Made by a program: the position numbers and the translations under genes
DNA from: an uncultured Ardenticatenaceae bacterium
GTDB taxonomy: Bacteria > Chloroflexota > Anaerolineae > Promineifilales > Promineifilaceae
NCBI GenBank assembly: GCA_964405285.1
Contig: CAYONK010000001.1
Coordinates: forward strand, 1 to 42,412
Length of the DNA stretch: 42,412 nucleotides
Direction: 5' to 3'
Part shown: positions 4,048 to 41,927 of the stretch, piece after piece
Layout: each line of letters starts with the position of its first letter
Numbering within the stretch: position 1 is the stretch's first letter
The notes under the pieces: model-generated
The model's database searches: none
Seen by the model: the letters and a program-made list of their open reading frames with translations, nothing else
What the model was told of the DNA's origin: nothing

Positions 4048-4175
4048 TCTGACAGATCACCTGAATTTTTGTTACGTTTGTCGCTCGCATCAGGGTGCAA
4101 TGTCATTGTTGCTATGCAAAATTGCCATCTACAATGAGGAAGCTGCGCAAAAGTAACTAAATCTAAGCGAAAAAG

Positions 4176-5510: not shown

Positions 5511-5514
5511 GAGT

Positions 5515-7415: not shown

Positions 7416-7433
7416 ACCACCAAAGGATTACTT

Positions 7434-17149: not shown

Positions 17150-18262
17150 TTACAGTTTCACACTTACTCGCAGTTCGTCAACTTTCCTCTCAAGCTGCTG
17201 GAAATAATCGGTTTCGACAATGCTGGCCACTTCGCTGGCAGTTTTACTTTTATCAATTTTAATGTGAAGCTGACGGATTTGTCGCTTCATATCCTCCTGA
17301 CGTAGGCGTGTTTCCTGGGCCATTCTTCCAAAAATGCGACAGAGTTGACTGATTTCATCGTCGCCCGGGGTTGTCTTCAGGTCTTGAATATGTTCAATAG
17401 AAAGCTCATCTGCCTCCATCAGTTGGGCTGCGTCGCTGAGATTGATAATGACTCCAGAAAGGCGTTGCGCGATCATACTGGCATTGACAATGACAAAGAG
17501 CATCGTCAGGATAATCGTAAACGACAGCTTGAACAAGATAAGCCCCTGGTCGCTATTTCCGCCAACCATGTCAGGTTGTACCAAGAAAAGACCCAGCAAA
17601 ATAATGGGCAAACCGGCGGCGCTGAGAAGCAAGAATAACAGCCGGCGCATGAACCTGGAGCGGAACGCTCTAAATGCGTTCATATCAAAATGCTGAAAAT
17701 TGTAGAGCAAGATGGGCAAGAGAAAGACGACGTTGTAAATGTTGCTCCAGACGGCTGGAACAAAGTATTGGGTAAAGACAAAATGCACGTCTAAAACACC
17801 CAAAGCCACCGTCAAGGCGGAGGCCGTCCCCATCCCTAACACGATGGCGGTCATTGCCACAAGGATGGCGTGGAAATAATCGCGGAGAGTATTAAACTCA
17901 GGAATAAAGCGTCTGGCAAAACCTGGGACCATGCCCATGAGTCCGTTGCCGATCTGCCAGGCTAAAAACGTGCCCATAGCAAAGTCAACAAAAGCGTTCC
18001 CCGTCAGGGGGGATACCGGAAAAGAGATGACGCCGGAGAGAAGGTCTCCCATGATGTTGCCAACCATCCCGGTGAAAAAGCCAACCGCCGGACCAAAAAC
18101 AAACCCAAAAAAGATAGGGACAACAACGCCAGGGCGAATATTGACGTCACCAGCTGTGGCCAACGGAAAAATCGTTGTTAGCCAGTTCAACAGCGCATAC
18201 AGGGTCGCGCCGACAAGCGGTATCAACAGGTTCTTGTTGTTTTGAAAATAATGAGTTGTCAT
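17150..18262 (-). CDS. Polytopic membrane protein with HAMP-like domain and C-terminal coiled coil, last gene of the exporter operon
   Basis: About 6 TM helices, with RPGVVVPIFFGFVFGPAVGFFTGMVGNIMGDLL reminiscent of ECF S-components. The HAMP signature is PGDDEISQLCRIFGRMAQE. It starts 15 nt downstream of the ABC gene stop. Confidence 0.6.
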   Translation of the reverse strand: MTTHYFQNNKNLLIPLVGATLYALLNWLTTIFPLATAGDVNIRPGVVVPIFFGFVFGPAVGFFTGMVGNIMGDLLSGVISFPVSPLTGNAFVDFAMGTFLAWQIGNGLMGMVPGFARRFIPEFNTLRDYFHAILVAMTAIVLGMGTASALTVALGVLDVHFVFTQYFVPAVWSNIYNVVFLLPILLYNFQHFDMNAFRAFRSRFMRRLLFLLLSAAGLPIILLGLFLVQPDMVGGNSDQGLILFKLSFTIILTMLFVIVNASMIAQRLSGVIINLSDAAQLMEADELSIEHIQDLKTTPGDDEISQLCRIFGRMAQETRLRQEDMKRQIRQLHIKIDKSKTASEVASIVETDYFQQLERKVDELRVSVKL

Positions 18263-18277: not shown

Positions 18278-21253
18278 TTATGCCATTTGCCGTTTTGCCA
18301 GGTCGGCAAATAACCCTTCCACGTTAATTAGTTCGTCGTAGGTTCCTTGTTGGACAACACGGCCGTTTTGCAACACAAAAATCTTATCCGCCCCCTTGAT
18401 AGTGCTGAGCCGATGGGCGATGACCACCCGCGTCGCTTGCAGATCTTCCAGGCTGCGGCTGACAACAGCCTGGGTGTGGTTGTCCAGGGCGCTGGTCGCC
18501 TCATCAAAGAACAGGATGCGCGGCCGGTTGACAATGGCGCGGGCGATGAGCAGGCGCTGCCGTTGCCCGCCAGACAACGTGCCGCCGCCGTTGCTGATGA
18601 TGGTGTGCAGCCCCATCGGCATTTTCTGAATATCTTCGGCCAACCCGGCCATGACGGCCGCACGCCAGGCATCTTCCACGGTCAAGGGTAAGGAGCCGAC
18701 AATGTTGGTGAAGAGATCGCCGGCCATCAATTTGCCATTTTGCAAGACGACGCCCATTTGCCGCCGCACTTCGCGGACATCCAGGCTGTCCAGATCGCGG
18801 CCGTCGTAATAGATGCTGCCCGACAAGGGTTGCTCGAAGCCCAGCAGCAGCCGGAAGAGGGTGGATTTGCCCGAACCGGAAGCGCCGACCAGAGCTACAA
18901 ATTCGCCCGGTTTGATCGCCAACGAAACATCCTTGAGGATCATCGGGCCATCCTGGCTGTAACGGAAAGAGACGTGGGACACTTCAATGCTGCCGACCAG
19001 TTCGCCAGGATGTTCTTTGAGAGCGTCCACTTCTGGCATGGCTTGCAGCACCGGGCGGGCGCGTTCATACATGGGGATGATGTTGAGGATGGTCAAGAAG
19101 GCGCCGCTTAGGGTGAGAACGGCCGTCATAAATTGAATAAACGCCGTGTTGAATGCCAGGAATTGACCGATAGTGAATACTTCGCGCCCGGATAAAACAA
19201 CGACGGCAAAGATCGCCATGGCCGTGATGACTTGATAGCCGGCGTTAAACACTTGCAGATTATTAGATATATCACGTGCCTGGTAGCTGGCCTGCCGGGC
19301 GTGGCTAAACTCGGCCGCCCAGGTGGCAAAGGCGCGCCCTTCGGCGGCGGCGGCGCGGAATTTGGCGATCCCTTCAATCGCCTGCAAAAGAATACCCGAC
19401 AACTTACCTTGCAGGTGGACCAGTTGGCGGTAGTATCCCATCTGGCGATACCCGGCAAAAACCATCACCGCGACGGAAAGCGCCACCAACCCGGTCGCCG
19501 TCCAGGCCAGGCCGCTGTGGTAGTAAAAGAGCAAGAAGAAGCTGAACACCGAGAAAATACCGGCCAGCATGGCGCTCATCACCGTACCAGAGAGAATTTG
19601 TTGGATGCGGCGAATGCCTAAGACACGGTTACCCAAATCGCCTGAAGTGTAATCGCGGAAAAAGGAGACAGGCAGGCTGAGTACGCGCTGCCAGATAGCC
19701 GCTTCTAAATCAGCGCCCATGCGTTCTTGCAGCCGGAGTAGAGCCAGGTTTTGCACGACCTGAAACAGGGCCATTGCCAGGACAACGATGATCAATGAGA
19801 AGCCGAGTTGGAGGAGCGGCAAACGGCCGTTCTGCGGGATGATCTGGTCGAAAATGATAGCGGTTGTAATGGGGATGAGCATCCCCAAGATGCCGATGGC
19901 GATACCCGCAAATAAAATGAGGCGCAGGTCCATTGTGTCGCCTGCCAGACCAAATTTGATCAGCTCCCAGGCGCCAACTGGCTTGTTGGGTAGGGAGCGG
20001 TAAAACATGTAGGCAAATGGCTTCATGGTTTCGGCGACTTCGGCAGTCAACGCTTGTTGCTGCCGCGTGGCCGGATCGTGGAGTTGGTAGCCTCGTTTGT
20101 AGGGCATGAGGACGATGGGCTGCCCTGTTTCCTCCCAGAATCCCAGCAGTGGGCCGTTGTCTTGTTGCCACCATTCCCCCTTCAAAACCACCTGGCGCGT
20201 CTGCACGCGCGAAGCGCGAACGATATCCGCCAGGGAGAGGGCCTTATTTTGCTGCGCTTTTTTCGGAGGGGCAACGATGTCCATGCCCAGGCGCTGCCCA
20301 ATCATCTGGCAGGCTTGTAACAGGGGGTTGTCTTCGGGGGAAACGGCCGTTAACGGCGCGGCCGGCGACACAAAAGGGACAGCCAGGCGGGTCAGCGCCT
20401 CATTGATAATGGCTTGATCAGAAGCCTGTTTGGCATACAGGCGACCTAACTGCTGCCGTCGCGTTTGCTCCAGCCATTGGGCGATGTTCTGCAACATGTG
20501 ACGGTGAAAATCCGCCAGGTCCGGCCAGGGAACCGTTTGCGCCAGGAAGGTGTGGGTATCAATGAGATCGATCTGGCTATTTTCGGCTGTTTGAATCCAG
20601 GCGCGTTCCGAAATAGGCCAGCGCACTTTGCCATTGAGCAGCGGCAATTGATTCACGCCAATAAACCGGGAATGCCCATAATCGTGCCGCACCCACAACA
20701 CACCACGCCGCGCACAGACGTTGCTGGCTTCTTCAATGTAAATCGCCGGACCAGCCTCCAGACGACGACAATCTTTAGGTGGGAGGCTGTCCAAAAGGCA
20801 GGCCGAAAGTTGCCGTACCCAGTTATCGAGCAGCGCAGTTACCGGCTGCCGAAAATCATGATCTTGAGACAGGCGATACAGCCGATCAGTCGAGAGGCGT
20901 AGCAGCCGTGCCTGTTTGCCCCCCACCAACAGCAGCCCGACCTGACACTGTTCCGCACGCAAATCCATGCCAAAGACAGCCTGCCCTGCCTCCACCCGGA
21001 ACAGATGCGTTCTACTCCCGGCGACTTCGCCATTCTCCAATGAAACGGCAAATACGTCAGCCCATCCTGTATAGACAACCCAGCAATGCGCAAGGTCGTC
21101 TAAAAGGATTGGTTTGTTGCTACCGCTCTCGACCATTTGCGCTTCTTTATAACGTAAATGCAGCAGGAACAACTCTTCCACCGGCATCTCTTCGGCTGGT
21201 TCTACTATTGGGTCGTCTGGTTGACCGTGCGCTGGTAATTGTCGTGTTTTCAT
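18278..21253 (-). CDS. RiPP/bacteriocin export ABC transporter permease-ATPase with N-terminal cyclic-nucleotide-binding-like domain (NHLP/NHLM ABC2 type)
   Basis: 991 aa. Walker A GASGSGKST, signature LSGGQRQR and Walker B ILFFDEATSALD. Six-TM ABC membrane domain. About 400 aa of N-terminal extension and no C39 domain. ATGA overlap with the upstream ABC gene. Confidence 0.85.
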   Translation of the reverse strand: MKTRQLPAHGQPDDPIVEPAEEMPVEELFLLHLRYKEAQMVESGSNKPILLDDLAHCWVVYTGWADVFAVSLENGEVAGSRTHLFRVEAGQAVFGMDLRAEQCQVGLLLVGGKQARLLRLSTDRLYRLSQDHDFRQPVTALLDNWVRQLSACLLDSLPPKDCRRLEAGPAIYIEEASNVCARRGVLWVRHDYGHSRFIGVNQLPLLNGKVRWPISERAWIQTAENSQIDLIDTHTFLAQTVPWPDLADFHRHMLQNIAQWLEQTRRQQLGRLYAKQASDQAIINEALTRLAVPFVSPAAPLTAVSPEDNPLLQACQMIGQRLGMDIVAPPKKAQQNKALSLADIVRASRVQTRQVVLKGEWWQQDNGPLLGFWEETGQPIVLMPYKRGYQLHDPATRQQQALTAEVAETMKPFAYMFYRSLPNKPVGAWELIKFGLAGDTMDLRLILFAGIAIGILGMLIPITTAIIFDQIIPQNGRLPLLQLGFSLIIVVLAMALFQVVQNLALLRLQERMGADLEAAIWQRVLSLPVSFFRDYTSGDLGNRVLGIRRIQQILSGTVMSAMLAGIFSVFSFFLLFYYHSGLAWTATGLVALSVAVMVFAGYRQMGYYRQLVHLQGKLSGILLQAIEGIAKFRAAAAEGRAFATWAAEFSHARQASYQARDISNNLQVFNAGYQVITAMAIFAVVVLSGREVFTIGQFLAFNTAFIQFMTAVLTLSGAFLTILNIIPMYERARPVLQAMPEVDALKEHPGELVGSIEVSHVSFRYSQDGPMILKDVSLAIKPGEFVALVGASGSGKSTLFRLLLGFEQPLSGSIYYDGRDLDSLDVREVRRQMGVVLQNGKLMAGDLFTNIVGSLPLTVEDAWRAAVMAGLAEDIQKMPMGLHTIISNGGGTLSGGQRQRLLIARAIVNRPRILFFDEATSALDNHTQAVVSRSLEDLQATRVVIAHRLSTIKGADKIFVLQNGRVVQQGTYDELINVEGLFADLAKRQMA

Positions 21254-23523
21254 ACGTACAACTTCTCCAATATCGAGTCAAGCAGTCGCTCTGATTCAGG
21301 CGTTTCGGCTTTAATGAGGCGGGTATATTCCCCACCACGACGCCACAGTTCTTCATGTGTGCCACGTTCGACCACCTGGCCGTTGTTCAAGACGATGATC
21401 TCGTCACAGTCACGGATGGTACTCAGCCGATGGGCGACAATCAGGCAGGTGCAGCCGCGACGGCGCAAGTTGTCATCAATCAGTTTCTCGGTGATGGGAT
21501 CGAGAGCGCTGGTGGCTTCGTCGAGAATCAAGATAGATGGGTCGCTGATCAGCGACCGCGCGATTTCCAGGCGCTGCCGCTGCCCACCGCTGAAGTTACG
21601 TCCCTCTTCCTCGACCATGTGATCGTACCCGGCGGCCTGGCTGGTGATCTCATCGTGAATATGGGCATCTTTAGCGGCGCGGATGATCGTCTCTTCCGGA
21701 ATTTGCCGATCCCACATGGTGAGATTGTCGCGGATGCTCCCTTCAAAGAGGAAAATGTCCTGATCGACAATGCGCAACGAATGGCTGACGACCACACGCG
21801 GAAATTCTTCGCGCTCACGGCCGTCAAAGAGAATTTGTCCATCCCAGGGACGGTAAAGACCGGCGACCAGGCGGGCAATGGTAGATTTGCCGCTGCCACT
21901 ACCACCAACCAGGGCCACGCGCATCCCCGGTTGTAAAGAGAGGTTGAAATTCTGGATCAGAGGGGCAGCCAGGCGGCTGTAGCCAAAGGTCAGGCTACGG
22001 ATTTCGAGCTGCCCCATCAGTTTTTGTAGGGAGTGGTCGGCGTCTTCCAGGAAGGTGTCGTCCGCCAAATCCACTCGCGGGTCCGGCTCATAATTGGTCA
22101 CGTCGTTCAGGCGGCGGACAATGCCATCTACTTCTTGCAACTGTGTACCCAATTGCACGACCTGGTTCACCGGCGCCAAAAAACTGGACATCAACGTTTG
22201 AAAAGCGACCAGGATGCCAACGCTCATTTGCCCATTGAGGATCAACGACGCGCCAACGATGAGAATGACGACGGTGGTGATCTGGCTGAGCAAGAAGGGG
22301 ACGACGTTGATGATCTGGGTGGTGGCCCCTAGCTCCTGGTTGGCGTTGAAAACTTTGGCCTGATACCCAGACCAGGTGGCGAAAGAATCAGCCTCGCGCC
22401 CGGTTGATTTGATCGTCTCGATTTGGGACAGGCTGTTGAAGGTGGTGGAGAGCAATTTGCCATGTTCTTGAACCAGACGTTGGTTAACATCTTTGCGGCG
22501 ACGCGCCACCATGCGCAGGGCCAGGAAGTTGAGGGCGGCCATCCCGATGCCGATGAGGGTTAGGGTGACGCTGTAATGAAACATGAGGATGGCATAGAAG
22601 AAGATCAGCACGCCGTTAAGCAAGGTGGTTGCCAGTTCGCCGGAGAGGAGTTCGGCGACGCGGTCGTTTTGTTCGATACGGGCGCTGATGTCGCCTGCGC
22701 CACGCTGGCTGAAGAATTCAATGGGCAGACGCAGGATATGCCAGGTGAGGCGGCTGGCATTGGACAGGGCCAGCCGCGTTTCTAGGCGCAGTAGATAGCG
22801 CTGTTGCATCCAGGTGAGGATGGAGCGCAACACGGCCGTTAACGCCATTCCGCCCAACAAAGGAACCATCCACTCTGTGCGACCGCCCACCAGGTAATAA
22901 TCCACAAAGACCTGGGAAAAAGCGGGGATCAGTAGGCCGGGAATGACCAGGACCAGGCTGACCAACACAACGAAGGCCAGAGCCATTTCCACCCCTGCCA
23001 GCCGGGGCAGCAAGGCGGCTGCCAGGCTTGGCTTTTTGCCCTGCGGTTGAAAACCCTCTCCTTTGCTAAAGGTCAAGACCACGCCAGTGAACGCTTCATC
23101 TAGCTCCTGGGCCGACACTGTGCGCGGGCCGGTTGCCGGATCGTTCAGGTACACCGTATCCTTGTAAAAGCCTTCGAGGACGACAAAATGATTGAAGTTC
23201 CAGTGGATGATGGCGGGCAAGGGTACGTCGCGCAGACCGGCCGGCTCTTGCCGGTATCCTTTGGCTGTCAGGCCATAGGTGCGCGCTGCTTTGACCATGT
23301 TGCTGGCTTTGCTGCCATCTCGGTTCACGCCGCAGGCCGCGCGCAGCTCTTCCAGGGGGATGTGGCTGCCATGATAGGCGAGGATGCTGCCCAAAGCGGC
23401 CGCGCCACATTCGACCATTTCCATCTGCAATACCGTGGGTGTTTTGGCGCGATGTCGCCCAAGCAGGTATTTTTTCAGTTCCGGCCACGCCTTTTTTGCT
23501 CTCTCGATCCGGTTTTCGTTCAT
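21250..23523 (-). CDS. Bacteriocin/lanthipeptide export ABC transporter with N-terminal C39 double-glycine peptidase domain (LanT/NHLM ABC1 type)
   Basis: C39 catalytic Cys context LQMEMVECGAAALGSILAYHG and His context IIHWNFNHFVVLEG. Walker A GGSGSGKST, signature FSGGQRQR and Walker B LILDEATSALD. Confidence 0.9.
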   Translation of the reverse strand: MNENRIERAKKAWPELKKYLLGRHRAKTPTVLQMEMVECGAAALGSILAYHGSHIPLEELRAACGVNRDGSKASNMVKAARTYGLTAKGYRQEPAGLRDVPLPAIIHWNFNHFVVLEGFYKDTVYLNDPATGPRTVSAQELDEAFTGVVLTFSKGEGFQPQGKKPSLAAALLPRLAGVEMALAFVVLVSLVLVIPGLLIPAFSQVFVDYYLVGGRTEWMVPLLGGMALTAVLRSILTWMQQRYLLRLETRLALSNASRLTWHILRLPIEFFSQRGAGDISARIEQNDRVAELLSGELATTLLNGVLIFFYAILMFHYSVTLTLIGIGMAALNFLALRMVARRRKDVNQRLVQEHGKLLSTTFNSLSQIETIKSTGREADSFATWSGYQAKVFNANQELGATTQIINVVPFLLSQITTVVILIVGASLILNGQMSVGILVAFQTLMSSFLAPVNQVVQLGTQLQEVDGIVRRLNDVTNYEPDPRVDLADDTFLEDADHSLQKLMGQLEIRSLTFGYSRLAAPLIQNFNLSLQPGMRVALVGGSGSGKSTIARLVAGLYRPWDGQILFDGREREEFPRVVVSHSLRIVDQDIFLFEGSIRDNLTMWDRQIPEETIIRAAKDAHIHDEITSQAAGYDHMVEEEGRNFSGGQRQRLEIARSLISDPSILILDEATSALDPITEKLIDDNLRRRGCTCLIVAHRLSTIRDCDEIIVLNNGQVVERGTHEELWRRGGEYTRLIKAETPESERLLDSILEKLYV

Positions 23524-23580: not shown

Positions 23581-24369
23581 CTAACGAAGAGGCAGCACCA
23601 ATTCAATGGGGCGCTGTGCCCCGATCTGGATGGTGGCGGAAGCCAATGTACCGATGAGGCCGGGCGATAGTTGGGTAATGGCCGTATCCGTCTCGATCAG
23701 CACGCGCACCTCAATCGGGTTATCCGGTAGCGCCAGATTGTGGGCGAGTGCCTCGCTGCCCAACAAGTGGGTTATTTGCTGTCTGGAGACGGGGTATTGG
23801 CTAACGGCCGTTACCACACCAGACATAGGAGCAACGCTAGTCGTGGCAACAGGCTCAATTGCCACTGGCATACCGACCTGGAGTTGGCGAGCGGCGACCG
23901 GCGATAGGTAGAGGACCGCTTCCAGGCTCTCGCCTGTCCCGGTGGATTGTAGACTGGCCAGGGAGTCGCCGCTGCGCAGGAGTTGGCCTACGTCTGTGTT
24001 TAGCTGCAAGATGCGGCCGTTGTGCAAACTGCGTACCGGCACGGGCGCGCTCTTGCCCAGAGGCAGAATCTCAGCCACGATCTGGTTTGTGGCGACGCTC
24101 TCTCCGGCGGCGACGTGCCAGGCATAAAGCTGTCCTTGTTCAGCCACGATGACGTTTTTGATGCCTCCTGTGGGGATCAAAGCGGCCGTCGCCGTTTGTT
24201 GCAAGGGAATTTGACCGAAGATGGCCCAATAAACGGCCGTTGCCACCAGCAGCGCCAAGGCCAGAAAAGCGAGCCAGCTACGGGGGCTGGTCACTTGCAT
24301 GAGTAGATCAAGCTGCTCAGGGGATGAAAGACGGTCAAGGGAAACTTTACGAAAAATCGAAGAAGTCAT
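23581..24369 (-). CDS. HlyD-family membrane-fusion/secretion protein (short NHLP-system type)
   Basis: 262 aa. N-terminal LSSPEQLD motif, a TM segment (WLAFLALALLVATAVYWAIF), then a beta-barrel-like region. Adjacent to the two ABC genes. Confidence 0.75.
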   Translation of the reverse strand: MTSSIFRKVSLDRLSSPEQLDLLMQVTSPRSWLAFLALALLVATAVYWAIFGQIPLQQTATAALIPTGGIKNVIVAEQGQLYAWHVAAGESVATNQIVAEILPLGKSAPVPVRSLHNGRILQLNTDVGQLLRSGDSLASLQSTGTGESLEAVLYLSPVAARQLQVGMPVAIEPVATTSVAPMSGVVTAVSQYPVSRQQITHLLGSEALAHNLALPDNPIEVRVLIETDTAITQLSPGLIGTLASATIQIGAQRPIELVLPLR

Positions 24370-24379: not shown

Positions 24380-25546
24380 TCACATCATAACCGGCGTTAG
24401 CGGCGTCTCGTTGGTCGTTGCCTCTATGCGCTCGGTTGCCGACAAAATGACTATTCTCCAGGCACGAACTTTCTCTGCCAGACGCTTTTCCCCGTCGCTG
24501 GCGGCCAGATCGGACAGGCTCGTGCCTGCCAGCGCGCAGAGTGCGGCTCCCCGGCCGACCTCGTCCCGATCCTGCCCGGCTAATGCGCGGTCGAATCGTT
24601 CCAGGTTGTAAACGGCCGTGACAACGATGTCCATGATCTGGAAAAATGCCGGGTCCTGTCGCAGCGATGGGTCCAGGTAATTTTCCAGCCGCCCCCCTGT
24701 CCGGTAGGATGGGTATGTTTCTAAACCCATAAAACGCAGCGCCCAATCGGCGCGGTAATGCCCGATGGCGGCGACGATGCCCGCGTAGTCAGCCAGTAAT
24801 TCGTCGTGCAGGTGTCGGCGAATAACGCCAAAGACTCGTTTGGTGAAGTAGTGGGCACACTCATGCTCAAGCCGTATCGTTAAGGAGAGTGAGTGCCACT
24901 CGTCTGCTGCCAACCCAAGCGAAGCGGCGGTCACGTTGCTGTAAGCCCCCTGGCTAAGGATGATGAAGCGGTCCTGATAAAGGTGCTTTTGGGGGATGAG
25001 TTCCTGAAAGGCGTGCGGCCAATCTTGGGATGTGCGGCGGGGATCGGCCGCCAACCATTGGCGGCGATAGGCGCGAACGCGATCCCAATTGTTGTATCCG
25101 GCGATCATGCAAGCGCCCATGGAATCGGGGATGGGGGATGGTTCGTTGTGTTTGGCCAGAGCTTGCACCAGAGCGCAAAAATCGGCGCGGGTGGCCGGGA
25201 TCAGTACCGGCACGGCGCCGGCGATGCTTTGGTGAATGTGTAACTGGAGGGCGTCCGGTTGTTGGAGCAGTAGGCCGCTCAGACCGGCCCATCCAGAAGT
25301 ATCTACCCCTTGTTTGGTCGCGGCGCGGTAAACGGCCGTTTGGCTGATACCCTGGTGAATGGGAAACTGCAACTGCACCAATCGCGCCTGCAGCGCTTCC
25401 CAGGCGCTACGGTGTACCGCTTCCGCCTGGTACTCCTGCCAGGTCGCTACATGATGTTCTGGCGGCAAGGGCAAACGACCATATCGCCAATTAAGGGAAG
25501 CGGGTGTATGTTGGGAAATTGGTGCGTCAACATATGCTGCGATCAT
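24380..25546 (-). CDS. Hypothetical protein with HExxH(+E) gluzincin-like motif; putative metallopeptidase
   Basis: LEHECAHYFTKRVFGVIRRHLHDELLADY carries HECAH, with a Glu 17 residues after the second His. The gene sits between the GT and the HlyD gene in the same orientation, 10 nt from the HlyD start. Confidence 0.5.
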   Translation of the reverse strand: MIAAYVDAPISQHTPASLNWRYGRLPLPPEHHVATWQEYQAEAVHRSAWEALQARLVQLQFPIHQGISQTAVYRAATKQGVDTSGWAGLSGLLLQQPDALQLHIHQSIAGAVPVLIPATRADFCALVQALAKHNEPSPIPDSMGACMIAGYNNWDRVRAYRRQWLAADPRRTSQDWPHAFQELIPQKHLYQDRFIILSQGAYSNVTAASLGLAADEWHSLSLTIRLEHECAHYFTKRVFGVIRRHLHDELLADYAGIVAAIGHYRADWALRFMGLETYPSYRTGGRLENYLDPSLRQDPAFFQIMDIVVTAVYNLERFDRALAGQDRDEVGRGAALCALAGTSLSDLAASDGEKRLAEKVRAWRIVILSATERIEATTNETPLTPVMM

Positions 25547-25639: not shown

Positions 25640-26896
25640 CTACGTTACCCACGATAACTGTAATGGTTCTGTTTGCCGTACTACCGGGGCCTGCTTCAGC
25701 GCCAACGTCTCCAACAGGGAGGCTGCGCGTTCCGCGCCCTTATAACGCGCAAGCGCCTGTTGTACACAACGCGCGTTTTGTTTGAGGTTACCGTCATAAA
25801 GCATTGCCCTGACGGCCTCTTTAAGATTTATTGGGGTCACTTCATTGGCAGGTATACAGTGGGCAACCCCTGCTTGCCCACACACTTTAGCCACATCGTA
25901 GCTTTCGCTGGCCGTAACAATGATCACCATGGGCAACCCATGCGATAAGGTGTTGAGCATAATACTTGTCGTCCCATTCGTGATCACGCCAGCAGCGTAA
26001 GGAAGAATAGCCTGGTGTGGGATATGTTGGCTCACAAAGAAGTTGTCCGGCAAATTGCTCTGCGTTATTTCAGGATCATTGGTTGACACAGCCACCGCAA
26101 CAGGCTCCTGTCTGAACGCCTCTAAGAAAACGGGCCAAAAATCAGGTATGCCATTCAATGTCTCCCCATCCTGTTTGAAAGGCTTTGACCAGCGGTTGTT
26201 GTGTTGTACATAGATGATAGGCTTCTGAGATGCGGTTACGCTATTTAGCCAGTCCAACAAAGGTCTCTCGGGGGAAATGGGCGATTTCCACAAACAGCCA
26301 CCAACCAGATGCACTTTGTCGGGAAGTGTTTCGATATCTTTTTGTAGTTCTGGCACACTACGTAGGAGAAACAGGTCTCCCAATAAGGCTGACTGGGGAT
26401 AAGCGCTTTGCTCTAATGGTGGCCTCTCACCTGTTGAGTACAGGCAGGCCAAACGGTATGTCTTCCAAAGGCCGTCATACCGTTTGGCCTCCCAGCTTTC
26501 AGAGTGCAAGCCCTCAATGCCGTTAATGGTTGGCCAGGGGTACGTCGCTAACCCCAAAACCGCGACCGGGATGTGGTGCTTTTGGGCGATAATAAGAGGC
26601 CCTATCGCCAACGCCGAAGTAACTATGACATCTGGCTCAAATGTGTTCACGGCAGCCGTGACGTAATCTGCTTGCTTGCGAATACCTTGTAGATCCATCC
26701 ATTGCGATACAGCAAAGATGTCATGGGCCTGGTCATTCGTGGGGATATATGAATACCCCGATTGCTCCAGTGTCGCTGCAAAAGAAGGGCCGGTGGTAAA
26801 GGCAACTTCATGGCCTCTGCTTTGTATTTCAGAGGCAACGGCCATGGCTGGGTAAACATAGCCTTCGCTTGCCAGAACGCAAAATAGATAACGCAT
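25640..26896 (-). CDS. GT-B fold glycosyltransferase, GT1/MGT (macrolide-glycosyltransferase-like) family
   Basis: MRYLFCVLASEGYVYPAMAVASEIQSRGHEVAFTT is a typical GT1/GT28 N-terminal acceptor domain. The C-terminal donor region reads GGC..., ITNGTTSIMLNTLSHGLPMVII. The gene starts 5 nt after the lanM stop. Confidence 0.8.
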   Translation of the reverse strand: MRYLFCVLASEGYVYPAMAVASEIQSRGHEVAFTTGPSFAATLEQSGYSYIPTNDQAHDIFAVSQWMDLQGIRKQADYVTAAVNTFEPDVIVTSALAIGPLIIAQKHHIPVAVLGLATYPWPTINGIEGLHSESWEAKRYDGLWKTYRLACLYSTGERPPLEQSAYPQSALLGDLFLLRSVPELQKDIETLPDKVHLVGGCLWKSPISPERPLLDWLNSVTASQKPIIYVQHNNRWSKPFKQDGETLNGIPDFWPVFLEAFRQEPVAVAVSTNDPEITQSNLPDNFFVSQHIPHQAILPYAAGVITNGTTSIMLNTLSHGLPMVIIVTASESYDVAKVCGQAGVAHCIPANEVTPINLKEAVRAMLYDGNLKQNARCVQQALARYKGAERAASLLETLALKQAPVVRQTEPLQLSWVT

Positions 26897-26901: not shown

Positions 26902-29900
26902 TTACTCCTGGGGCAATTCAAACAGCAACAGAGAAGGTATATCTGCCGGATAGGCAACTCTTAAGAGACTGTACCCAATGCCGGCAAGGCCATTCATGAG
27001 ACCCATAGTCTCGATACCGAGCGGCGCGCCGCAAATAAGTCCTTCCTGGCAAATGGATGCTATGAGATCGTTCGCTAACTGCTGCACGTGGGCTTTTAGG
27101 TTAGCATCTGACAGTTGTTGTGCAGCCTGGAGCAAGAACTCCAGGTTGCCAGACGCGCCATGACAGAGCGAGTGGTTGTCGCCCACTCCTGTGGTGAGTG
27201 CGCTTTGCACGGCCGTTTTGATCTCCTCGCGCATTTGGGGGTCATCCATATAGCGGGTGGATGCTAAACGCGCCATTCCCACGCCGGTTATCCCATCACA
27301 CCAGGTGGCAGGCAACTTAGATCCCTCGGCAGCTAAAACAGACCGCTCATAAGCGATAGCAGAAGCGGCTGCCTGGTAAAAACGAGGTTCCCCGCTGACG
27401 TGGTGCAGTTTCAATAATGCCCAGGCAATCCCGCTCCCCCCAGTGGCAAAGCCTACGTTGTGAGAATTGTTTTGTAGATTCTTCTCTTGCCAGGATATGC
27501 CTGATGCTGAATGCTGTGCCTTGTCGAGCAGCCAATCGCCGCATTGTATTGCCGCATCTAGCACCGGTTTTGAAGGACGATGGGCATACAGGCTGGTAAG
27601 ACAAACAATCGTACCGGCCGCGCCAGAGAGGATGTCAAAATGGGTATCGCGTTGGATGAGTGAGGTAATGTGCTGCACATAATGTTCGGTGCGTGCGAGA
27701 AGGTCTTCGTCTTGCCAGAGAGTACCCAGATGCGTCAGGGTATAAATAATGCCACCCCATCCATCAAATCCGCCAATCAATTTAAGTGCGCGCTTCATGG
27801 CTAATGTTGGGTTTTCCACCCAGCCAAGCACAGAGTTGATTGTGTGCCGGGCCAGGGTGGTGTAACGGCCGTTGTCCGTCACGCGCCCCAGGTGAGCTAA
27901 AAACAAAGCGCTGCCCGGCAAACCACTGTAGAGGCTTGTGTTCCCCGCTTCCAGGAACCACTTATGTTCTTGGGCATATAGATCAACCCAGGTGGCACGA
28001 TCTCCTTCCCGGATGGCTGACGCCGCAATTCTCTCCCCTAACACGTTCGCCAACGCAAGCGGATCGGGGCGTGTACCCGGTGAGGCAAGCAGGACGGGTT
28101 TTCTCCGCACTTCGCTGGCAGACGACGACCGGACAAATGAAGCGCGCACAAACCAAACCTGCCGCTCGTAATCGGCCGCGCTCAAGTCTCGTAGCCGGTT
28201 TTTAGCCAACTCCAGCCCAGACTCTTCCAGGTAATTGGCGATGCAGTCGCCGCGGCTGCTCCATACATGCTCTGAACCGGGTTGGGTCGTGAAAAAAGGA
28301 ACATCCAATTGCCACAAATCGTTGCGTTCAAAAGGAATTAACTGTTTTAAGTGAGGCTGATCAGGCACTTCAAGCCACAATTTGTCACATGTTTTCTCGT
28401 AATTCAAGCCATCGCGCAGCTCTTGTGGTTGTAAGCATTGCCGCAATAACAGGGCATAGGTCATGCTGTTTCTGGGCACAATGCGCGTTTGATCGGTTGC
28501 AAATTGGTCTAAGGGGCTGCCGGGATGTAATAACTCGTCACGATGATCGTGCAATAACCAATACATAGCGTGAAATCCGGCAAGAACCTCGTCTATATAC
28601 GCCAGGCTGTTTATCGGTTGCCCTTGCAGGTGGGGTTGGTGATTTGTCACCCCTCCCGAAATTGGTTTGTGGGCGTACTGCATTTTGTCCGTTCCTACAT
28701 TTTCCAATACCAACGCTGTTCGTGTACTCTCGCTGGCAGCATCTCCCATGCCGCCTATGTCCAAACCGAGGCTGATTAACCTGATGTTGGGCAACAACAA
28801 CGGGTTGACTACCGAGTCGTTGATTTGTTTGTAGGCCGTGGCGATTGCGCCGTGCGCAGCCATATATGTAGGATGAAATAATGTCTCCAGATCGATCAGC
28901 ATGGGGTGTTCACCGGAAGCGATCACATTTTCATAATGAAAATCAACCCCTTTCAAAATGGTTAACAGCCCCAGATACCCTCCTTGCCTGGTGAAGAAAC
29001 GCCTGACTTCTGCTTCTGTGGCGCAAGCCTGCGCAGACACAAATTCGACCCAACCATGGCTGCTGCGATTGAGCAGCGGTAATGTTGCCAGGGGTGGGGT
29101 GAAACCTCGCGCATTGATCCAGCAAAGCAGAGATTGGAAATGCGCGTCAACGTCGAGTGGTTTGGGCTTATAGACCAACTTTTCGCCGGAGCGAAAGGTG
29201 ACGATCATGACTCTGGCGCTGCCAGCGTGGCGGTCTCCGGCATTGGCGTTGATCTGGGCTACACAATCAGAGGGATCTATCGCTGCGAAAGTATGGCAAA
29301 TGTCTTCCCAATCGCTGCATAAGCGCTGCAGGAATAGGCGTGTTGCTTGAACCCAGTTCTGCAAAAAAGTAATCAGCAAACGAGCCAGGACCGGATATTC
29401 TTGTAAGAGGGAAAGCGCCAAATCTGGTTGATGCAGACGGCCGATGAAACTTTGGAAACGAGCTTCTGGTGTTTCACCTTGTAAAAGGCCCAGCACACGT
29501 GCCGCTTGAAGTTCCAAGACCATGACCGGCGTCAATATCGCTGTTAATTCGTCTAACAAGGGGCTGAACAAGATATCTTCGATGGTGGTTTTATCAATCG
29601 GGCTGGGGAAACGGCCGTTTTGCCCAACAAGCTCGCTGACAGTTACATGAACGGCCGTTTGCGATTGCTGGATCAATGGCTTGATCAATGCGAGAAAAGT
29701 CGTATCTATCTTTGCCCGCAAAACCTGCGATAGCCCAGCATCGGCGTCAAGGTTTGTCGAAAACGCCGCCAATAACTCAGCAACCCACGCTTGCTTCGCC
29801 ACACGCCCTTGCAAAGTCACTGCCGGTTCAGCTAATAAAGAGAGCAGCCCCTCTTCTGTCAGATGGCTCTCCGCCAATCTCTGCGCAAAATACCCATCCT

Positions 29901-30096
29901 GGTCAAAAGGTCGCTGACGCTTCCATTGACCCAGGCGCTTTAGATGACGTTCAGAAGGCGCTTGTTCCACAGGTAAATTGTTATGGTCCTGATAGAGAGA
30001 ACTTGTCCGTTCAAACAGCGTTGCTGCCTGTAACCATAAGGGCGTGTCAAATTTTGCATTCAGCATGGCTAAACTCAACGGAGACAAATTTTTCAA
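26902..30096 (-). CDS. lanM: Class II lanthipeptide synthetase LanM (dehydratase + LanC-like cyclase); start uncertain (TTG 30096 or ATG 30066)
   Basis: Dehydratase motifs GDRHAGSARVMIVTFRSGEKLVYKPKPL and HYENVIASGEHPMLIDLETLF. Cyclase motifs GGSGIAWALL, WCDGITG and CHGASGNLEFLL, which carry the Zn ligands. Confidence 0.95.
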   Translation of the reverse strand: MKNLSPLSLAMLNAKFDTPLWLQAATLFERTSSLYQDHNNLPVEQAPSERHLKRLGQWKRQRPFDQDGYFAQRLAESHLTEEGLLSLLAEPAVTLQGRVAKQAWVAELLAAFSTNLDADAGLSQVLRAKIDTTFLALIKPLIQQSQTAVHVTVSELVGQNGRFPSPIDKTTIEDILFSPLLDELTAILTPVMVLELQAARVLGLLQGETPEARFQSFIGRLHQPDLALSLLQEYPVLARLLITFLQNWVQATRLFLQRLCSDWEDICHTFAAIDPSDCVAQINANAGDRHAGSARVMIVTFRSGEKLVYKPKPLDVDAHFQSLLCWINARGFTPPLATLPLLNRSSHGWVEFVSAQACATEAEVRRFFTRQGGYLGLLTILKGVDFHYENVIASGEHPMLIDLETLFHPTYMAAHGAIATAYKQINDSVVNPLLLPNIRLISLGLDIGGMGDAASESTRTALVLENVGTDKMQYAHKPISGGVTNHQPHLQGQPINSLAYIDEVLAGFHAMYWLLHDHRDELLHPGSPLDQFATDQTRIVPRNSMTYALLLRQCLQPQELRDGLNYEKTCDKLWLEVPDQPHLKQLIPFERNDLWQLDVPFFTTQPGSEHVWSSRGDCIANYLEESGLELAKNRLRDLSAADYERQVWFVRASFVRSSSASEVRRKPVLLASPGTRPDPLALANVLGERIAASAIREGDRATWVDLYAQEHKWFLEAGNTSLYSGLPGSALFLAHLGRVTDNGRYTTLARHTINSVLGWVENPTLAMKRALKLIGGFDGWGGIIYTLTHLGTLWQDEDLLARTEHYVQHITSLIQRDTHFDILSGAAGTIVCLTSLYAHRPSKPVLDAAIQCGDWLLDKAQHSASGISWQEKNLQNNSHNVGFATGGSGIAWALLKLHHVSGEPRFYQAAASAIAYERSVLAAEGSKLPATWCDGITGVGMARLASTRYMDDPQMREEIKTAVQSALTTGVGDNHSLCHGASGNLEFLLQAAQQLSDANLKAHVQQLANDLIASICQEGLICGAPLGIETMGLMNGLAGIGYSLLRVAYPADIPSLLLFELPQE

Positions 30097-30226: not shown

Positions 30227-30336
30227 GATTCGCAATCTGGTAGAAATCTGTCAGGCCAGTTATGATGCAATTGCTATTAGCGTACTGGCACGGTCATAAG
30301 ACCGTGCCAAACGAGAGAACTCTGATCGCGATGCCC

Positions 30337-30401
30337 AAATAAAAAGGGTTGCTCCCCGGTCAAATTGTAATAACGCATTCAATTTGACCGGGGAGCAACC
30401 C
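30337..30401 (-). terminator. Strong intrinsic terminator between lanA and lanM
   Basis: Minus strand reads GGGTTGCTCCCCGGTCAAATT-14 nt loop-AATTTGACCGGGGAGCAACCC-TTTTTATTT. This is a perfect 21-bp stem that begins 10 nt after the lanA stop. Confidence 0.85.
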
Positions 30402-30410
30402 TGACACAAT

Positions 30411-30620
30411 TTATCGAGTGTTAATCTTGGTGTTACCACAAGTGTTGATACAGGTCCAGGCTCCACCGGCAACTTCTTCCAACTCTTCATCCGACAATTC
30501 GGCCATGTTGTCGGGGGAAGGCGGCAAAGCAGCGAGTTGATCGGGGGATAAACTGTTGCGGAATTCCTCATCTTTCCAGGCCTGCACAATTTCTTGGGGG
30601 GTTGGGGTATATTCTGACAT
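30411..30620 (-). CDS. lanA: Lanthipeptide precursor LanA, mersacidin/lichenicidin-type leader with double-glycine site; predicted core AWTCINTCGNTKINTR
   Basis: AAGGAGA SD lies 11 nt upstream. The leader is IVQAWKDEEFRNSL...AELSDEELEEVAGG, with hydrophobic residues at -4, -7 and -12. The 16-aa core has 4 Thr and 2 Cys. Adjacent to lanM. Confidence 0.9.
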   Translation of the reverse strand: MSEYTPTPQEIVQAWKDEEFRNSLSPDQLAALPPSPDNMAELSDEELEEVAGGAWTCINTCGNTKINTR

Positions 30621-30782: not shown

Positions 30783-31058
30783 TTAATCAAGCGGTACAAT
30801 TGGGCGATTATGCAAAAGATAGTGCCACCACGTATCCTCAGATGGCTCGGTATCTTTTCCCCATTCAGCGTCAAGGCCAAAAACCGTGAACTTCCGATCC
30901 TCTTCCTTTTTGTACTCTTGTATCCAGCGTTGTGCATCCACAACAGACTCGAAGGCACATCCGCCACGATACTCTTCTGTACGACCTACTTTAAAGAGGG
31001 CGCCCCATACTTGTAGCTGCGCTTTGTATACTTTTTCTGGGCCGACAGTGTAGATCAC
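30783..31058 (-). CDS. Small hypothetical protein (91 aa, GTG start) directly upstream of lanA
   Basis: AAGGAA SD lies 7 nt before the GTG. Acidic, Trp-rich and cytoplasmic-looking. I recognised no family. Confidence 0.5.
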   Translation of the reverse strand: MIYTVGPEKVYKAQLQVWGALFKVGRTEEYRGGCAFESVVDAQRWIQEYKKEEDRKFTVFGLDAEWGKDTEPSEDTWWHYLLHNRPIVPLD

Positions 31059-31342: not shown

Positions 31343-32449
31343 ATGAGAAATCTGGCAGTGATCAATCATGCAGAAGAATCGCTATGTGATAGCGCAAAGG
31401 AAACGGTTGAGATAGACGGCGTTCCCGTTACCTTTGGCATGATATCCACGTCTGTACCTGAGTTTAATGGAAACGCTCCTGAAAACCGGCAGCGGGTCTT
31501 GGTGAGAAAGAAGGCCTTTTCCTGTAACTACCGTGATAAAGCCTTTATCTTTGCCGCCAGCAAGCAGACCCGACCAGGGGTCTATCAACCTATTGGCTCA
31601 GAGTTTGCTGGAGAGGTGGTTGATATTGGGCGTGATGTTGTTGGATTAGCTATTGGGGATAGAGTGATTGGGAACAACCATTACTATGACAACAGTTCTC
31701 CTTTTGCCGAAGGTGTGCCCACAAATAAGGCATCCAAAGAGTACGAGGTGTTGCACTACGCTAAGCTCATCAAGATCCCGCCGCAAATGTCGGATGAGGT
31801 CGGCGCTGCGTTTAGCATCGGGGCGCAAACCGTTTATGGCATGATCCGCAAGCTCAACTTGAAGCCTGGCGAAAAAGTCCTTGTGACCTCGGCAAAATCG
31901 AATACATCTTTGTTTGCCATCAATGCCCTCCGCCAATACGATGTTGCCGTCTACGCCACCTCGACAAATGATGATTATGCTGACAGATTACAAGAGATGG
32001 GCGTACGTCAGCTATTTGTGGTGTCGCCCGAGCCTGAGGCAGGCAGCATTATGGCTGCGGCCGGAATGTTTGACTGCGTCCTTGACCCCTTTTTTGATCT
32101 CCATCTAAGCTGGGTAGTGCATTTAATGACCTATAATGCACGCTACGTTTCCTGCGGCCGTGCTGGTCAATACCATCGCATCATTGATAAACAACCGCCT
32201 GTTATAGAGAAAACGAATGCCTTGACGGATGTTCTATCCAACGTTGTGGTGAAGAATATGAAACTGATCGGAAATTGTGTGGGTGTTACGGAAGACCTGG
32301 CTCAAGCTATCGCGGATTACACGACCGGGCGCTTTGATGTTGTGATTGACTCAGTTTACTCTGGTAAACAGCTAGGTGAGTTTATCAACAGGAGTTACAA
32401 TGCCAGAGAACGGTTTGGCAAAGTGATCTATAAATATGATGGTGATTAA
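31343..32449 (+). CDS. Medium-chain dehydrogenase/reductase (quinone-oxidoreductase/enoyl-reductase-like, apparently zinc-free); LanJ-type dehydroamino-acid reductase candidate
   Basis: GSEFAGEVVDIGRDVVGLAIGDRVIG is the GroES-like MDR core, with Ser in place of the catalytic-Zn His. LKPGEKVLVTSAKSNTS occupies the position of the Gly-rich dinucleotide motif. The gene is divergent from the lanA operon. Confidence 0.7.
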   Translation: MRNLAVINHAEESLCDSAKETVEIDGVPVTFGMISTSVPEFNGNAPENRQRVLVRKKAFSCNYRDKAFIFAASKQTRPGVYQPIGSEFAGEVVDIGRDVVGLAIGDRVIGNNHYYDNSSPFAEGVPTNKASKEYEVLHYAKLIKIPPQMSDEVGAAFSIGAQTVYGMIRKLNLKPGEKVLVTSAKSNTSLFAINALRQYDVAVYATSTNDDYADRLQEMGVRQLFVVSPEPEAGSIMAAAGMFDCVLDPFFDLHLSWVVHLMTYNARYVSCGRAGQYHRIIDKQPPVIEKTNALTDVLSNVVVKNMKLIGNCVGVTEDLAQAIADYTTGRFDVVIDSVYSGKQLGEFINRSYNARERFGKVIYKYDGD

Positions 32450-32510: not shown

Positions 32511-33611
32511 TTAAACACTTTGTAGGGCAGACTTGGCGGGTGGTAACCAGCTCTTGTTGATACATAAATAAGCTTTTGTCTCGTAAGAGGAGTTTGGGTG
32601 GATGACCACCTTAATATGGTTGATGCACCTGACAAGCACATTGCGGGAATATGGGCCGTCCACAAAATACCCCTCTTGTTCTTGGGGCAGAAGGTTATAT
32701 TGACCACCATACCACATCAGCAACGCTTCTCTTTTATTTGGCATACATTGCCCCATCTTGACGAGATGTTCTAGCAACAGAGGCCAACGCGCTTCTTTTC
32801 TGGGGTTGTGTTCAGTCAGGTAGCATTCAATCCCAATTTTAGGGGAAATCTCGCCATTGATAACGTCTAATTGAAAAGCGATTCGATCTAAGAACGGGTC
32901 TATTTCGTGCAAGAAAGTGTGGATAGTGTCATAACAACCGGGCCATCCCACATCTTTCAAATAGGGGATGACTTGTTCTGGTGTTATATCGGCCACGCAT
33001 AGCTTGATGGGCACGGAATCTCTACACAGCATTGCCCCTACAGAAAACATATAAGAATGTTCTGGTAACGAGTTGAAGCAAGTGTCTATCTTGTGCGCAA
33101 GCAAGGGGGATAAAGGTGCTGCGAGCAATATCTCCAAAGCGACTTTGGTGGCTTGATGATGCCTTGATCTGAGTGTCTGCAGCTCGGTTGTACCGGGTTT
33201 CTTTTCATACGTGACAAATAATCCAGGGATTGGGATGTGCGGGGGAGGGCCATCCACATCAAACTCAAGCCAAATGTCAGCCACCTCCATATTTAGAAGT
33301 TCTACCTGTTCCCACTGCGCGCAGAAATCTTGCACACGCTGCCAAGCATGGCTGTCGAGTACCCCTTGGTTGGGCAGTAGATAGTTCGGGTTGCTGTTGG
33401 TGAGGAAAGTACGAGAACCATCGTGCGCTAGAAACTGTGGAATAAAATCAACAGAATCTGACTTGCCTAAACGACATTCTAAAACCAAACTGGATGCAGG
33501 GGGTAAAATTTTAGCTATTGTTTTGAGGCGCGCCAAAGCTGTGGGAGAAACCAATTCAGGACTCATCCGGGATTGGGTAACTTCTAAGTACCGAGTAGGT
33601 GAATATATCAT
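32511..33611 (-). CDS. Hypothetical protein (366 aa), no recognised family
   Basis: Long ORF with ordinary-looking composition. No signal peptide or TM segment. It shows five spaced strand-like motifs (see findings). Confidence 0.6.
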   Translation of the reverse strand: MIYSPTRYLEVTQSRMSPELVSPTALARLKTIAKILPPASSLVLECRLGKSDSVDFIPQFLAHDGSRTFLTNSNPNYLLPNQGVLDSHAWQRVQDFCAQWEQVELLNMEVADIWLEFDVDGPPPHIPIPGLFVTYEKKPGTTELQTLRSRHHQATKVALEILLAAPLSPLLAHKIDTCFNSLPEHSYMFSVGAMLCRDSVPIKLCVADITPEQVIPYLKDVGWPGCYDTIHTFLHEIDPFLDRIAFQLDVINGEISPKIGIECYLTEHNPRKEARWPLLLEHLVKMGQCMPNKREALLMWYGGQYNLLPQEQEGYFVDGPYSRNVLVRCINHIKVVIHPNSSYETKAYLCINKSWLPPAKSALQSV

Positions 33612-37474: not shown

Positions 37475-37707
37475 GGACCCTATTTTCCTTCCAAAGCACT
37501 GAATCGTGTTGAGGAAAAAAACCTATTTACATTGTGGCTAAGTGACCACTATCCTGTGACTTTGAGTTTATTATTGGGTTCAGAAACAGCACAAAACACC
37601 TGAGGTTCAGGCTTCGAAAACGTGACTAGACCTCATCCTCTTTGATGAGCTTACGATTGATCTGGTACGACTGGCTGCTCAGCGCCTGGAACGCGCAAGA
37701 ATGGCGT

Positions 37708-40820: not shown

Positions 40821-40851
40821 TGTTTTAGTGGTCTTATCAAGGGTATGGTGG

Positions 40852-41775: not shown

Positions 41776-41867
41776 GGACTGTCACGAGACAAGCTCAAAT
41801 GGATTATTGAAAGCGCTCCGGGAGATTTTGGCAATCTTTGCAAGCGCAAATGCGCACCCCCAAAACG

Positions 41868-41893
41868 AAAAAAGCCAAGTTTTCACTTGGACT
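41868..41893 (-). terminator. Weak hairpin + T-tract after the 72-aa peptide gene (possible attenuator)
   Basis: Minus strand reads AGTCCAAGT-gaaa-ACTTGGCTTTTTTCGTTTT. The core stem is only 6 bp, followed by T6. Confidence 0.3.
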
Positions 41894-41927
41894 TTTATTT
41901 CAACGTAAATATGCGAATGATATTCTC

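Follow-up and report, generated by a model that had tools for sequence, protein, structure and literature searches.

A class II lanthipeptide cluster with a mersacidin-type leader and putative prenylation, reduction and glycosylation genes in an Anaerolineae-type Chloroflexota genome

The stretch of DNA analysed here, 42,412 nucleotides of contig CAYONK010000001.1 from an uncultured Ardenticatenaceae bacterium (hereafter the window), belongs to an Anaerolineae-type Chloroflexota genome and carries a class II lanthipeptide cluster built around a short precursor gene, lanA. Judged by sequence comparison, the variable cargo island of the window is p366-lanJ-orf91-lanA-lanM-GT (the last being a glycosyltransferase gene), located between a ParA-like gene and an NHLP-type export module. 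The lanA open reading frame (ORF; 30411..30620, minus strand) encodes 69 amino acids (aa) from an ATG at 30618-30620, with an AAGGAG motif about 12 nt 5' of this codon, and its product consists of MSEYTPTPQEIVQAWKDEEFRNSLSPDQLAALPPSPDNMAELSDEELEEVAGG followed by AWTCINTCGNTKINTR. The 53-aa leader (30462..30620, minus strand) is of the mersacidin/lichenicidin type, contains an L(X)4L motif and has EVAGG at its C-terminus, and the 16-aa core AWTCINTCGNTKINTR occupies 30414..30461 on the same strand, ahead of the stop codon at 30411-30413. Residues 10-53 of the leader match the NCBIfam model TIGR03898 (mersacidin/lichenicidin type 2 lantibiotic) with an E-value of 7.7e-18 and 64.2 bits, the cut-off of the model being 23.5 bits, so that the match is far above the chance level; the NHLP leader model is matched only over its C-terminal 20 or so residues. 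The core has Trp2, Thr3, Cys4, Thr7, Cys8, Thr11 and Thr15, that is, four Thr, two Cys and no Ser. On direct reading it contains neither Glu nor the TxTxEC/CTLTxEC lipid II motif, which we take as defined for mersacidin-like cores in PMC7268733, and a six-frame phmmer search combined with a motif scan detected no second precursor in the whole window.

A preliminary description of this DNA had recognised a class II precursor with a mersacidin-type leader, cleavage after the double glycine (GG) of EVAGG, the positions of the Trp, Thr and Cys residues in the core, the lack of CTLTxEC and the presence of only one precursor gene. All of this agrees with our data: the TIGR03898 match and the LanM synthetase gene directly downstream point to the class, and GG cleavage is plausible because a C39 peptidase-ATP-binding cassette (C39-ABC) exporter matching TIGR03796 is encoded nearby. 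For the same group of leaders, GG cleavage by LahT150 was shown experimentally, and such leaders precede unrelated cores (PMC9576775). With a core containing Thr and Cys, a leader ending in double glycine, a C39-ABC transporter and a neighbouring LanM, these features of class II are present, and on this sequence evidence 30411..30620 is a genuine lanA and the sole structural gene of the class II lanthipeptide cluster within the window.

Between lanA and lanM, RNA folding revealed a hairpin with a 22-bp stem and a U-run (30336..30407, minus strand). Its folding energy is -49.5 kcal/mol (z -8.5), and none of 200 shuffled sequences was equally stable; a simple terminator scan, whose limits on stem and loop size are surpassed here, did not detect it. 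This structure looks like an intrinsic terminator or attenuator, and an attenuator between lanA and lanM is the usual arrangement in lantibiotic operons.

Related peptides, for which the preliminary description had thought a search worthwhile, do exist: lanA has five close homologues (87-93% identity) and a distant one, P0002 (71-75%), and one homologue is annotated in the Chloroflexota metagenome-assembled genome GCA_016716065.1. In the alignment of these six homologues the leader is nearly unchanged; in the core, no change occurs at W2, T3, C4, C8, G9 and T11, while position 7 has either T or S and position 10 either N or Q. The tail, from position 12 onwards, differs between the homologues in both sequence and length and does not keep Thr15. 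Ser occurs in the cores of P0007 and P0002 only, at position 7.

The gene neighbourhood is conserved as well. Two related contigs (L003 and L004) are fully syntenic with the window, and the order lanJ-orf91-lanA-lanM is also found in a distant relative (L001/L002), so that the position of lanJ is kept in all four. The 91-aa orf91 (30783..31058, minus strand), directly upstream of lanA, is 78-90% identical in L001-L004, where its place is always between lanJ and lanA; even the distant relative has an orf91 of 78% identity, while the N-termini of its LanM and LanJ reach only 43-52%. Pfam and NCBIfam scans gave no family match for orf91, which could serve as an immunity, chaperone or regulatory protein.

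This conservation bears on whether lanA is the true substrate. The window represents only 42 kb of a genome and ProcM-like systems use remote precursors, so one might suppose that lanA is decayed, or not the only substrate, and that the true one is encoded elsewhere. However, lanA is intact, has a ribosome-binding site, stands immediately upstream of lanM as the only precursor of the window, and is conserved together with lanM, lanJ and orf91 (71-93% identity) with an invariant core motif, which makes this explanation highly improbable.

Other related Anaerolineae-type contigs keep the flanks of the island (a kinase, two response regulators, a cyclic-nucleotide (cNMP)-binding protein and a ParA-like protein) together with the export module DUF7005-HlyD-ABC1-ABC2-membrane protein, and only the cargo differs. 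In L005 and L006 the flanks and the module are as in the window; the cargo of L005 consists of LanM and two small ORFs only, and that of L006/L007 comprises an NHLP-leader precursor (core GNCSASWCSSASISPN), a glycosyltransferase (39% identical), a p366 homologue (27.5%), a LanM (31.5%) and a cytochrome P450.

The lanM gene (26902..30096, minus strand) starts 315 nt downstream of lanA and encodes a class II lanthipeptide synthetase of 1064 aa (TIGR03897, E 2.8e-261) with DUF4135 (PF13575) and LANC_like (PF05147) domains. Its closest solved structure is LicM2 (6st5, E 2.9e-110). The kinase/lyase motifs are present, as is the Cys-Cys-His set of zinc ligands in the cyclase (WCDG, CHG); the LanMs of L005 and L006 have a ProcM-like Cys-Cys-Cys zinc site.

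The homologues also inform the ring topology. The conserved core segment is [T]-C-x-x-[T/S]-C-x-x-T, the [T/S]-C-x-x unit occurring twice in five homologues, and three times, followed by Thr, in the P0002 core AWTCAGSCGQTCSNT (AWTC AGSC GQTC SNT). Owing to this repeat, no Cys is left unused in any homologue if each Cys(i) is linked to the dehydroamino acid (Dhx) at i+3, and the dehydrobutyrine (Dhb) at position 3 then remains over. On the sequence pattern, two Cys-upstream rings, Cys4→Dhb7 and Cys8→Dhb11, would be the most parsimonious solution, which we favour, although our data are not decisive. For a ring in which Cys stands upstream there is a precedent in MppE, where MppM forms the DL-lanthionine Cys79→Ser83 (PMC11791876, PMC12715784).

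The preliminary description had built its rings on Dhb3-Cys8, combined either with a reversed Cys4-Dhb7 ring or with Cys4 linked to Dhb11 or Dhb15. A forward i to i+5 ring such as Dhb3→Cys8 is ordinary chemistry, and both T3 and C8 are invariant, yet Cys4 then needs an extra reversed ring, and in P0002 it stays unpaired under a forward i+5 rule unless such a ring is added. The repeats of the homologues thus speak for two consecutive Cys-upstream rings, while Dhb3-Cys8 itself may still form. Also, the expectation of two or more surplus Dhb/Thr residues has to be reduced, as Thr15 and the tail are not conserved and two rings would leave over only a single conserved Thr.

The statement that adjacent Thr-Cys pairs cannot form a ring was too strong, since ring A of mersacidin joins the adjacent Cys1 and Dhb2, although MrsM made no ring when the order was reversed to Thr-Cys (PMC9486960). 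One could imagine, therefore, that the pairs 3-4 and 7-8 close seven-membered methyllanthionines like ring A of mersacidin, which has the same leader family, with Thr11 left free for tailoring; the strict conservation of the T-C dipeptide (three in P0002) fits this equally well. However, the order in mersacidin is Cys-Thr, the reverse of the one found here, and the invariance of Thr11 would be left unexplained. We know of no natural Dhx(i)-Cys(i+1) ring and regard rings of this kind as quite improbable here.

The gene that changes the interpretation of Trp2 lies at 32511..33611 (minus strand) and encodes p366, an unannotated protein of 366 aa with a predicted PT-barrel (ABBA aromatic prenyltransferase) fold. 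Its AlphaFold2 model, obtained from an 18-sequence alignment, has a predicted local distance difference test score (pLDDT) of 86 and a predicted template modelling (TM) score (pTM) of 0.87, and comprises five alpha-alpha-beta-beta units. Each of the best 46 Foldseek matches of this model in the PDB is an ABBA aromatic prenyltransferase (probability 1.0, TM 0.45-0.54); among them are NphB/Orf2, AnaPT, DMATS1, FgaPT2, CymD, AmbP1, FamD1 and KgpF. The match to KgpF, a peptide Trp prenyltransferase (8ye0), has an E-value of 5.4e-4 and represents fold-level likeness only, and p366 does not match the family sequence models of the cyanobactin prenyltransferases (LynF/TruF/PatF, PagF, KgpF).

The initial impression that p366 forms a rare family, based on 20 matches in a word-indexed search, was rejected, as a profile search yielded 4350 representative clusters. 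Some members of the family are fused to methyltransferase, 2-oxoglutarate (2OG) oxygenase, sulfotransferase or squalene-hopene-cyclase domains, the last in one case. Homologues of p366 accompany LanM and a glycosyltransferase in Archangium gephyra (L009/L010; core NAAASCDWCSCIAAEAAAE), in the soil metagenome contig L016 (core LAAASCDWCSC) and in L006; in L012 and L013 they directly follow NHLP exporters, without a glycosyltransferase, the homologue and LanM of L013 being about 8 kb apart. Since these two loci pair p366 homologues with NHLP precursors, a strict p366-glycosyltransferase linkage was rejected. Trp is present in all nine distinct cores encoded beside p366 homologues, and in six of them at core position 1-2; by rough arithmetic, with a Trp frequency of about 1.3%, this pattern is very unlikely to be due to chance. 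As a separate observation, the region L013:2599-17105 contains at least four NHLP precursors with cores starting with G/D-W, together with the p366 homologue, a DUF7005 gene and the distal LanM, and one of its cores, DTNWTCGGWSCG..., is similar to the AWTC motif of the window.

We prefer Trp2 prenylation because of the PT-barrel fold of p366 and of the Trp found in all cores beside its homologues; on the modelled fold, such prenylation, as performed by MppC, appears better supported than a Trp glycosylation of the NAI-112 type. The preliminary description had singled out Trp2 by reference to NAI-112. The residue is invariant indeed, but the link to NAI-112 is mere analogy, and the PT-barrel gene had been missed.

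Two further enzymes may act on the core, in line with the reduction and glycosylation envisaged in the preliminary description: the supposed "ADH" is a homologue of LtnJ, and the glycosyltransferase is of the GT1/MGT-like type. LanJ (31343..32449, plus strand; 368 aa) is a LanJA-type dehydro-amino-acid reductase of the MDR family, which shares 32% identity over 348 aa with LtnJ of pMRC01 (E 3e-56) as well as the motifs GSEFxG and SAKSxTSLF. LtnJ reduces dehydroalanine (Dha) to D-Ala. As the window core has Thr only, the substrate of LanJ would be Dhb, giving D-aminobutyrate (D-Abu).

The product of GT (25640..26896, minus strand; 418 aa) belongs to the GT1 family (GT-B fold, MGT-like) and has matches to EryCIII-like_C, Glyco_transf_28 and UDPGT; its match to TIGR01426 (E 1.6e-34) is under the cut-off of the model, and its relatives in the PDB are YjiC, CalG and OleD. 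Homologues with 34-39% identity adjoin LanM in L006, L009, L016 and L018. An exclusive association of this clade with ribosomally synthesised peptides that are modified post-translationally (RiPPs) was rejected, given the L020 locus without RiPP genes. In a metagenome contig (L017:6677-11135), three GT1 relatives stand beside two GG-leader (NHLP-like) precursors with the short cores GPDDPPTW and LERVYPYPERTDPSVDTAQP, which are not of the lanthipeptide type, and without LanM, a context which suggests that the clade also serves other, non-lanthipeptide RiPP types.

The preliminary description had assigned the surplus Thr/Dhb residues to reduction or glycosylation. A surplus of Ser/Thr is not a shared feature, since the cores of Archangium and of the metagenome contig L016, which are accompanied by related glycosyltransferases, have two Ser for three Cys; therefore, surplus Ser/Thr is not a common sugar acceptor. 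No free Ser/Thr would remain in these cores after two rings, which makes Trp or Cys a plausible acceptor. This lends some weight to the scheme of the preliminary description as a whole, in which rings based on Dhb3-Cys8 go together with reduction or O-glycosylation of surplus Thr/Dhb, possible N-glycosylation of Trp2, and no prenylation. The GT1 and lanJ genes are real, and AplG N-glycosylates Trp in NAI-112 (PMC11912497). However, NAI-112 belongs to class III, Thr15 is not conserved, and the scheme ignores a PT-barrel gene which co-varies with Trp-containing cores also in the cassettes free of glycosyltransferases (L012, L013). We consider this scheme unlikely, though deserving of attention.

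The explanation which we prefer, and to which we assign a probability of roughly 0.55, is that the cluster produces a 16-mer with two methyllanthionine rings, prenylated Trp2, one D-Abu and one sugar, exported upon GG cleavage. LanM would dehydrate Thr residues and close two methyllanthionines in the segment W-T-C-x-x-T/S-C-G-N/Q-T, from Cys4 to Dhb7 and from Cys8 to Dhb11, leaving Dhb3. The LanJA homologue may then reduce this leftover conserved Dhb to D-Abu. The PT-barrel protein p366 would prenylate the invariant Trp2 with the leader still attached, and the L(X)4L-GG segment on which MppC depends is retained in this leader; the GT1 enzyme would attach one sugar to the peptide; and the C39-ABC exporter would cut after Gly-Gly and secrete a compact lipidated 16-mer.

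Several observations weigh against this explanation. First of all, the modifications and chemical steps are all inferred from sequence. In the LanM of the window, the cyclase His of GxSHGxxG is replaced by Thr (GFATGGSG), and without this acid/base residue the efficiency or mode of cyclisation is uncertain; at the same position, L003 has Asn and the Archangium homologue has Arg, while His is kept in L005 and L006. Few characterised lanthipeptides have Cys-upstream i+3 rings. The core, having no Ser, offers LanJ no source of Dha, so that Dhb reduction is required, and to our knowledge the conversion of Dhb to D-Abu has been reported only for carnolysin-type systems. The donor-binding motif of the glycosyltransferase is divergent, and some of its relatives at 32-36% identity occur outside RiPP contexts. 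The assignment of p366 is based on a predicted fold with moderate TM scores (0.45-0.54) and about 10-13% identity; p366 gave neither a Pfam or NCBIfam match at E<=0.001, and hence no prenyltransferase family model, nor a match to PDB sequences, and its gene is separated from lanA by lanJ on the opposite strand. Finally, the leader lacks the long structured Nif11/NHLP nucleus which is engaged by MppC.

The altered cyclase motif, together with the position of the glycosyltransferase gene next to lanM, invites one more explanation, in which LanM only dehydrates and no thioethers arise, so that Cys4 and Cys8 form a disulfide or carry a sugar as in glycocins. It is consistent with LanII-2B, a peptide with a leader of the same group, which kept one free Cys in Escherichia coli (PMC9576775). 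Against it, the cyclase retains its zinc ligands and the Thr/Ser-Cys spacing is conserved; moreover, the S-glycosyltransferases of glycocins belong to GT2 (PMC11912497), the SunS-type enzymes acting there on Cys, whereas the enzyme of the window is GT1/GT-B. We consider this explanation rather improbable, marginally more so than the adjacent rings.

The preferred explanation in its most specific form, a 16-mer which combines prenylated Trp, a sugar and D-Abu in one molecule and in which a LanM without the canonical cyclase His has closed two consecutive Cys-upstream methyllanthionines of i to i+3 spacing, demands more and is unlikely to hold in every detail.

Among known systems, the closest parallel is offered by prenylated class II lanthipeptides, which were described in 2024-25 (PMC11791876, PMC12715784). 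In the mpp pathway of Moorena producens PAL (Saha et al. 2025, Wakeel et al. 2025), MppE has the 7-aa core ACWRWSG, and the ABBA prenyltransferase MppC geranylates Trp82 only on the cyclised, leader-bearing peptide, for which L(X)4L is needed (PMC11791876, PMC12715784). Like mpp, the window cluster has a class II LanM and a very short core with Trp, preceded by a GG leader that contains L(X)4L; also common to both are a gene for an alpha-beta-beta-alpha PT fold and a Cys-upstream ring, which is established for MppE and predicted here; the leader segment ELSDEELEEVAGG of lanA resembles ELSDSELEAVAGG of MppE. The comparison of p366 with MppC concerns fold and gene context. The mpp leader is of the Nif11 type, whereas that of lanA is of the short mersacidin/lichenicidin type, and Trp2 precedes the presumed rings on their N-terminal side and is not part of them, unlike in mpp. 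Compared with mpp, the window cluster adds GT1 and LanJA, has no halogenase, arginase or terpene cyclase, and resides in Chloroflexota. Proteins of the MppC type occur commonly in Cyanobacteriota and Myxococcota; of 258 such proteins, 76 adjoin LanM. Prenylated lanthipeptides termed "steromaze" are reportedly described by Hubrich et al. 2024.

The other comparisons concern parts of the cluster. The mersacidin/lichenicidin family shares the leader model, a LanM closest to LicM2 and GG/C39 export, but mersacidin has the TxTxEC motif in its core and a LanD enzyme forming aminovinyl-methylcysteine (AviMeCys), and the window core is unrelated to it; Pfam and NCBIfam scans of ORFs of at least 120 aa over most of the window found no LanD/flavoprotein decarboxylase. 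The LanII-2 group likewise combines similar leaders with differing cores and products (PMC9576775), and its member LanII-2B of Archangium violaceum, considered as an orthologue of the A. gephyra cassette, was rejected because the cores differ (PMC9576775). With lacticin 3147 and other LanJA-containing lanthipeptides the window cluster shares an MDR-family reductase, which is 32% identical to LtnJ and encoded beside lanA and lanM; LtnJ acts on Dha, whereas the window core, having no Ser, would provide Dhb instead. Only two glycosylated lanthipeptides were counted in 2025, NAI-112 of class III and cacaoidin of class V (PMC11912497), and our literature search found no natural glycosylated lanthipeptide of class II. 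NAI-112 (Trp N-glycosylated) and cacaoidin (Tyr O-glycosylated) share with the window cluster a glycosyltransferase and a conspicuous aromatic residue but differ in lanthipeptide class and synthetase, and the window cluster has no labionin or AviMeCys machinery.

Lanthipeptide prenylation is thus already known, and what the sequences suggest as new is its probable combination with LanJA and GT1 on a mersacidin-type leader in Chloroflexota, which is not yet described. If the proposed pathway is true, no class II lanthipeptide before its product would have been glycosylated, and none would have had this triple tailoring; the product would originate from an uncultured Chloroflexota lineage, with relatives in Myxococcota, and the cluster would provide the first glycosyltransferase acting on this class. 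Macrocyclic peptides with lipid and sugar groups are sought-after scaffolds, and here a gene-encoded 16-mer would unite thioether rings, a prenylated Trp, a D-amino acid and a sugar; moreover, lanthipeptide prenylation would reach from long Nif11/NHLP leaders to a short mersacidin-type leader. The family represents a natural test of Cys-upstream ring formation by LanM, and of whether it is possible without the cyclase His, and the compact cluster with its defined parts makes heterologous reconstitution directly feasible.

The export module continues the minus-strand operon of lanA, lanM and GT and begins with a DUF7005 protein (24380..25546; PF22541, E 4.9e-140). It is followed by a HlyD-type adaptor of an NHLP-type bacteriocin exporter (23581..24369; TIGR03794, E 9.2e-48, above the cut-off), the C39 peptidase-ABC transporter (LanT/PCAT; 21250..23523; Peptidase_C39, ABC_membrane and ABC_tran; TIGR03796 with 1092 bits against a cut-off of 853), a second ABC subunit of the NHLP-type exporter (18278..21253; TIGR03797 with 950 bits against a cut-off of 709) and a membrane protein of 370 aa (17150..18262). 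The latter has a weak ECF-S-like match, also follows ABC2 in L005 and L006, and is possibly an immunity or transport accessory. The module is flanked by a regulator with BTAD, NB-ARC and TPR domains (13475..16513, minus strand; Pfam), found after the module in L006 too.

DUF7005 has more than 2000 homologues, mostly cyanobacterial, and leads the export module whatever the cargo (L003-L008, L013). Its possible role as a core-specific tailoring enzyme was rejected, as it travels with HlyD, ABC1 and ABC2 beside unrelated cassettes (L005, L006, L008, L013). The protein has an invariant HExxH motif (H228-E229-x-x-H232) and D248/E249/D253. Its AlphaFold2 model (pLDDT 88) has no structural neighbour in the PDB (best E 0.29), a sequence search of the PDB was also empty, and no mention of DUF7005 was found in the literature. 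Judging from the motif and the model, DUF7005 may represent an undescribed fold and serve as a metallopeptidase for peptides with a GG leader.

At the other side of the island, the gene for a divergent homologue of polyprenyl synthetases (40852-41775), which carries the motifs DDVED and DDLTD, has a HisKA_3 kinase gene (38397-40820) directly downstream, and both are accompanied by two NarL/GerE response regulators (36767-42146, minus strand). Upstream of the polyprenyl synthetase is a 72-aa ORF (41928-42146) which ends with ...PAPEQAWIP and so has Trp near its C-terminus. By analogy, this gene order recalls the ComQ-(ComX)-ComP-ComA or PalQ-type modules of prenylated pheromones; alternatively, the polyprenyl synthetase may supply the prenyl donor to p366. 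The opposite end of the window (67-8057, plus strand) is occupied by an unrelated operon for a molybdopterin oxidoreductase, a 4Fe-4S subunit, a DmsC-type anchor, a radical SAM protein, a NarJ-like chaperone, a ferredoxin-like protein and FmdE.

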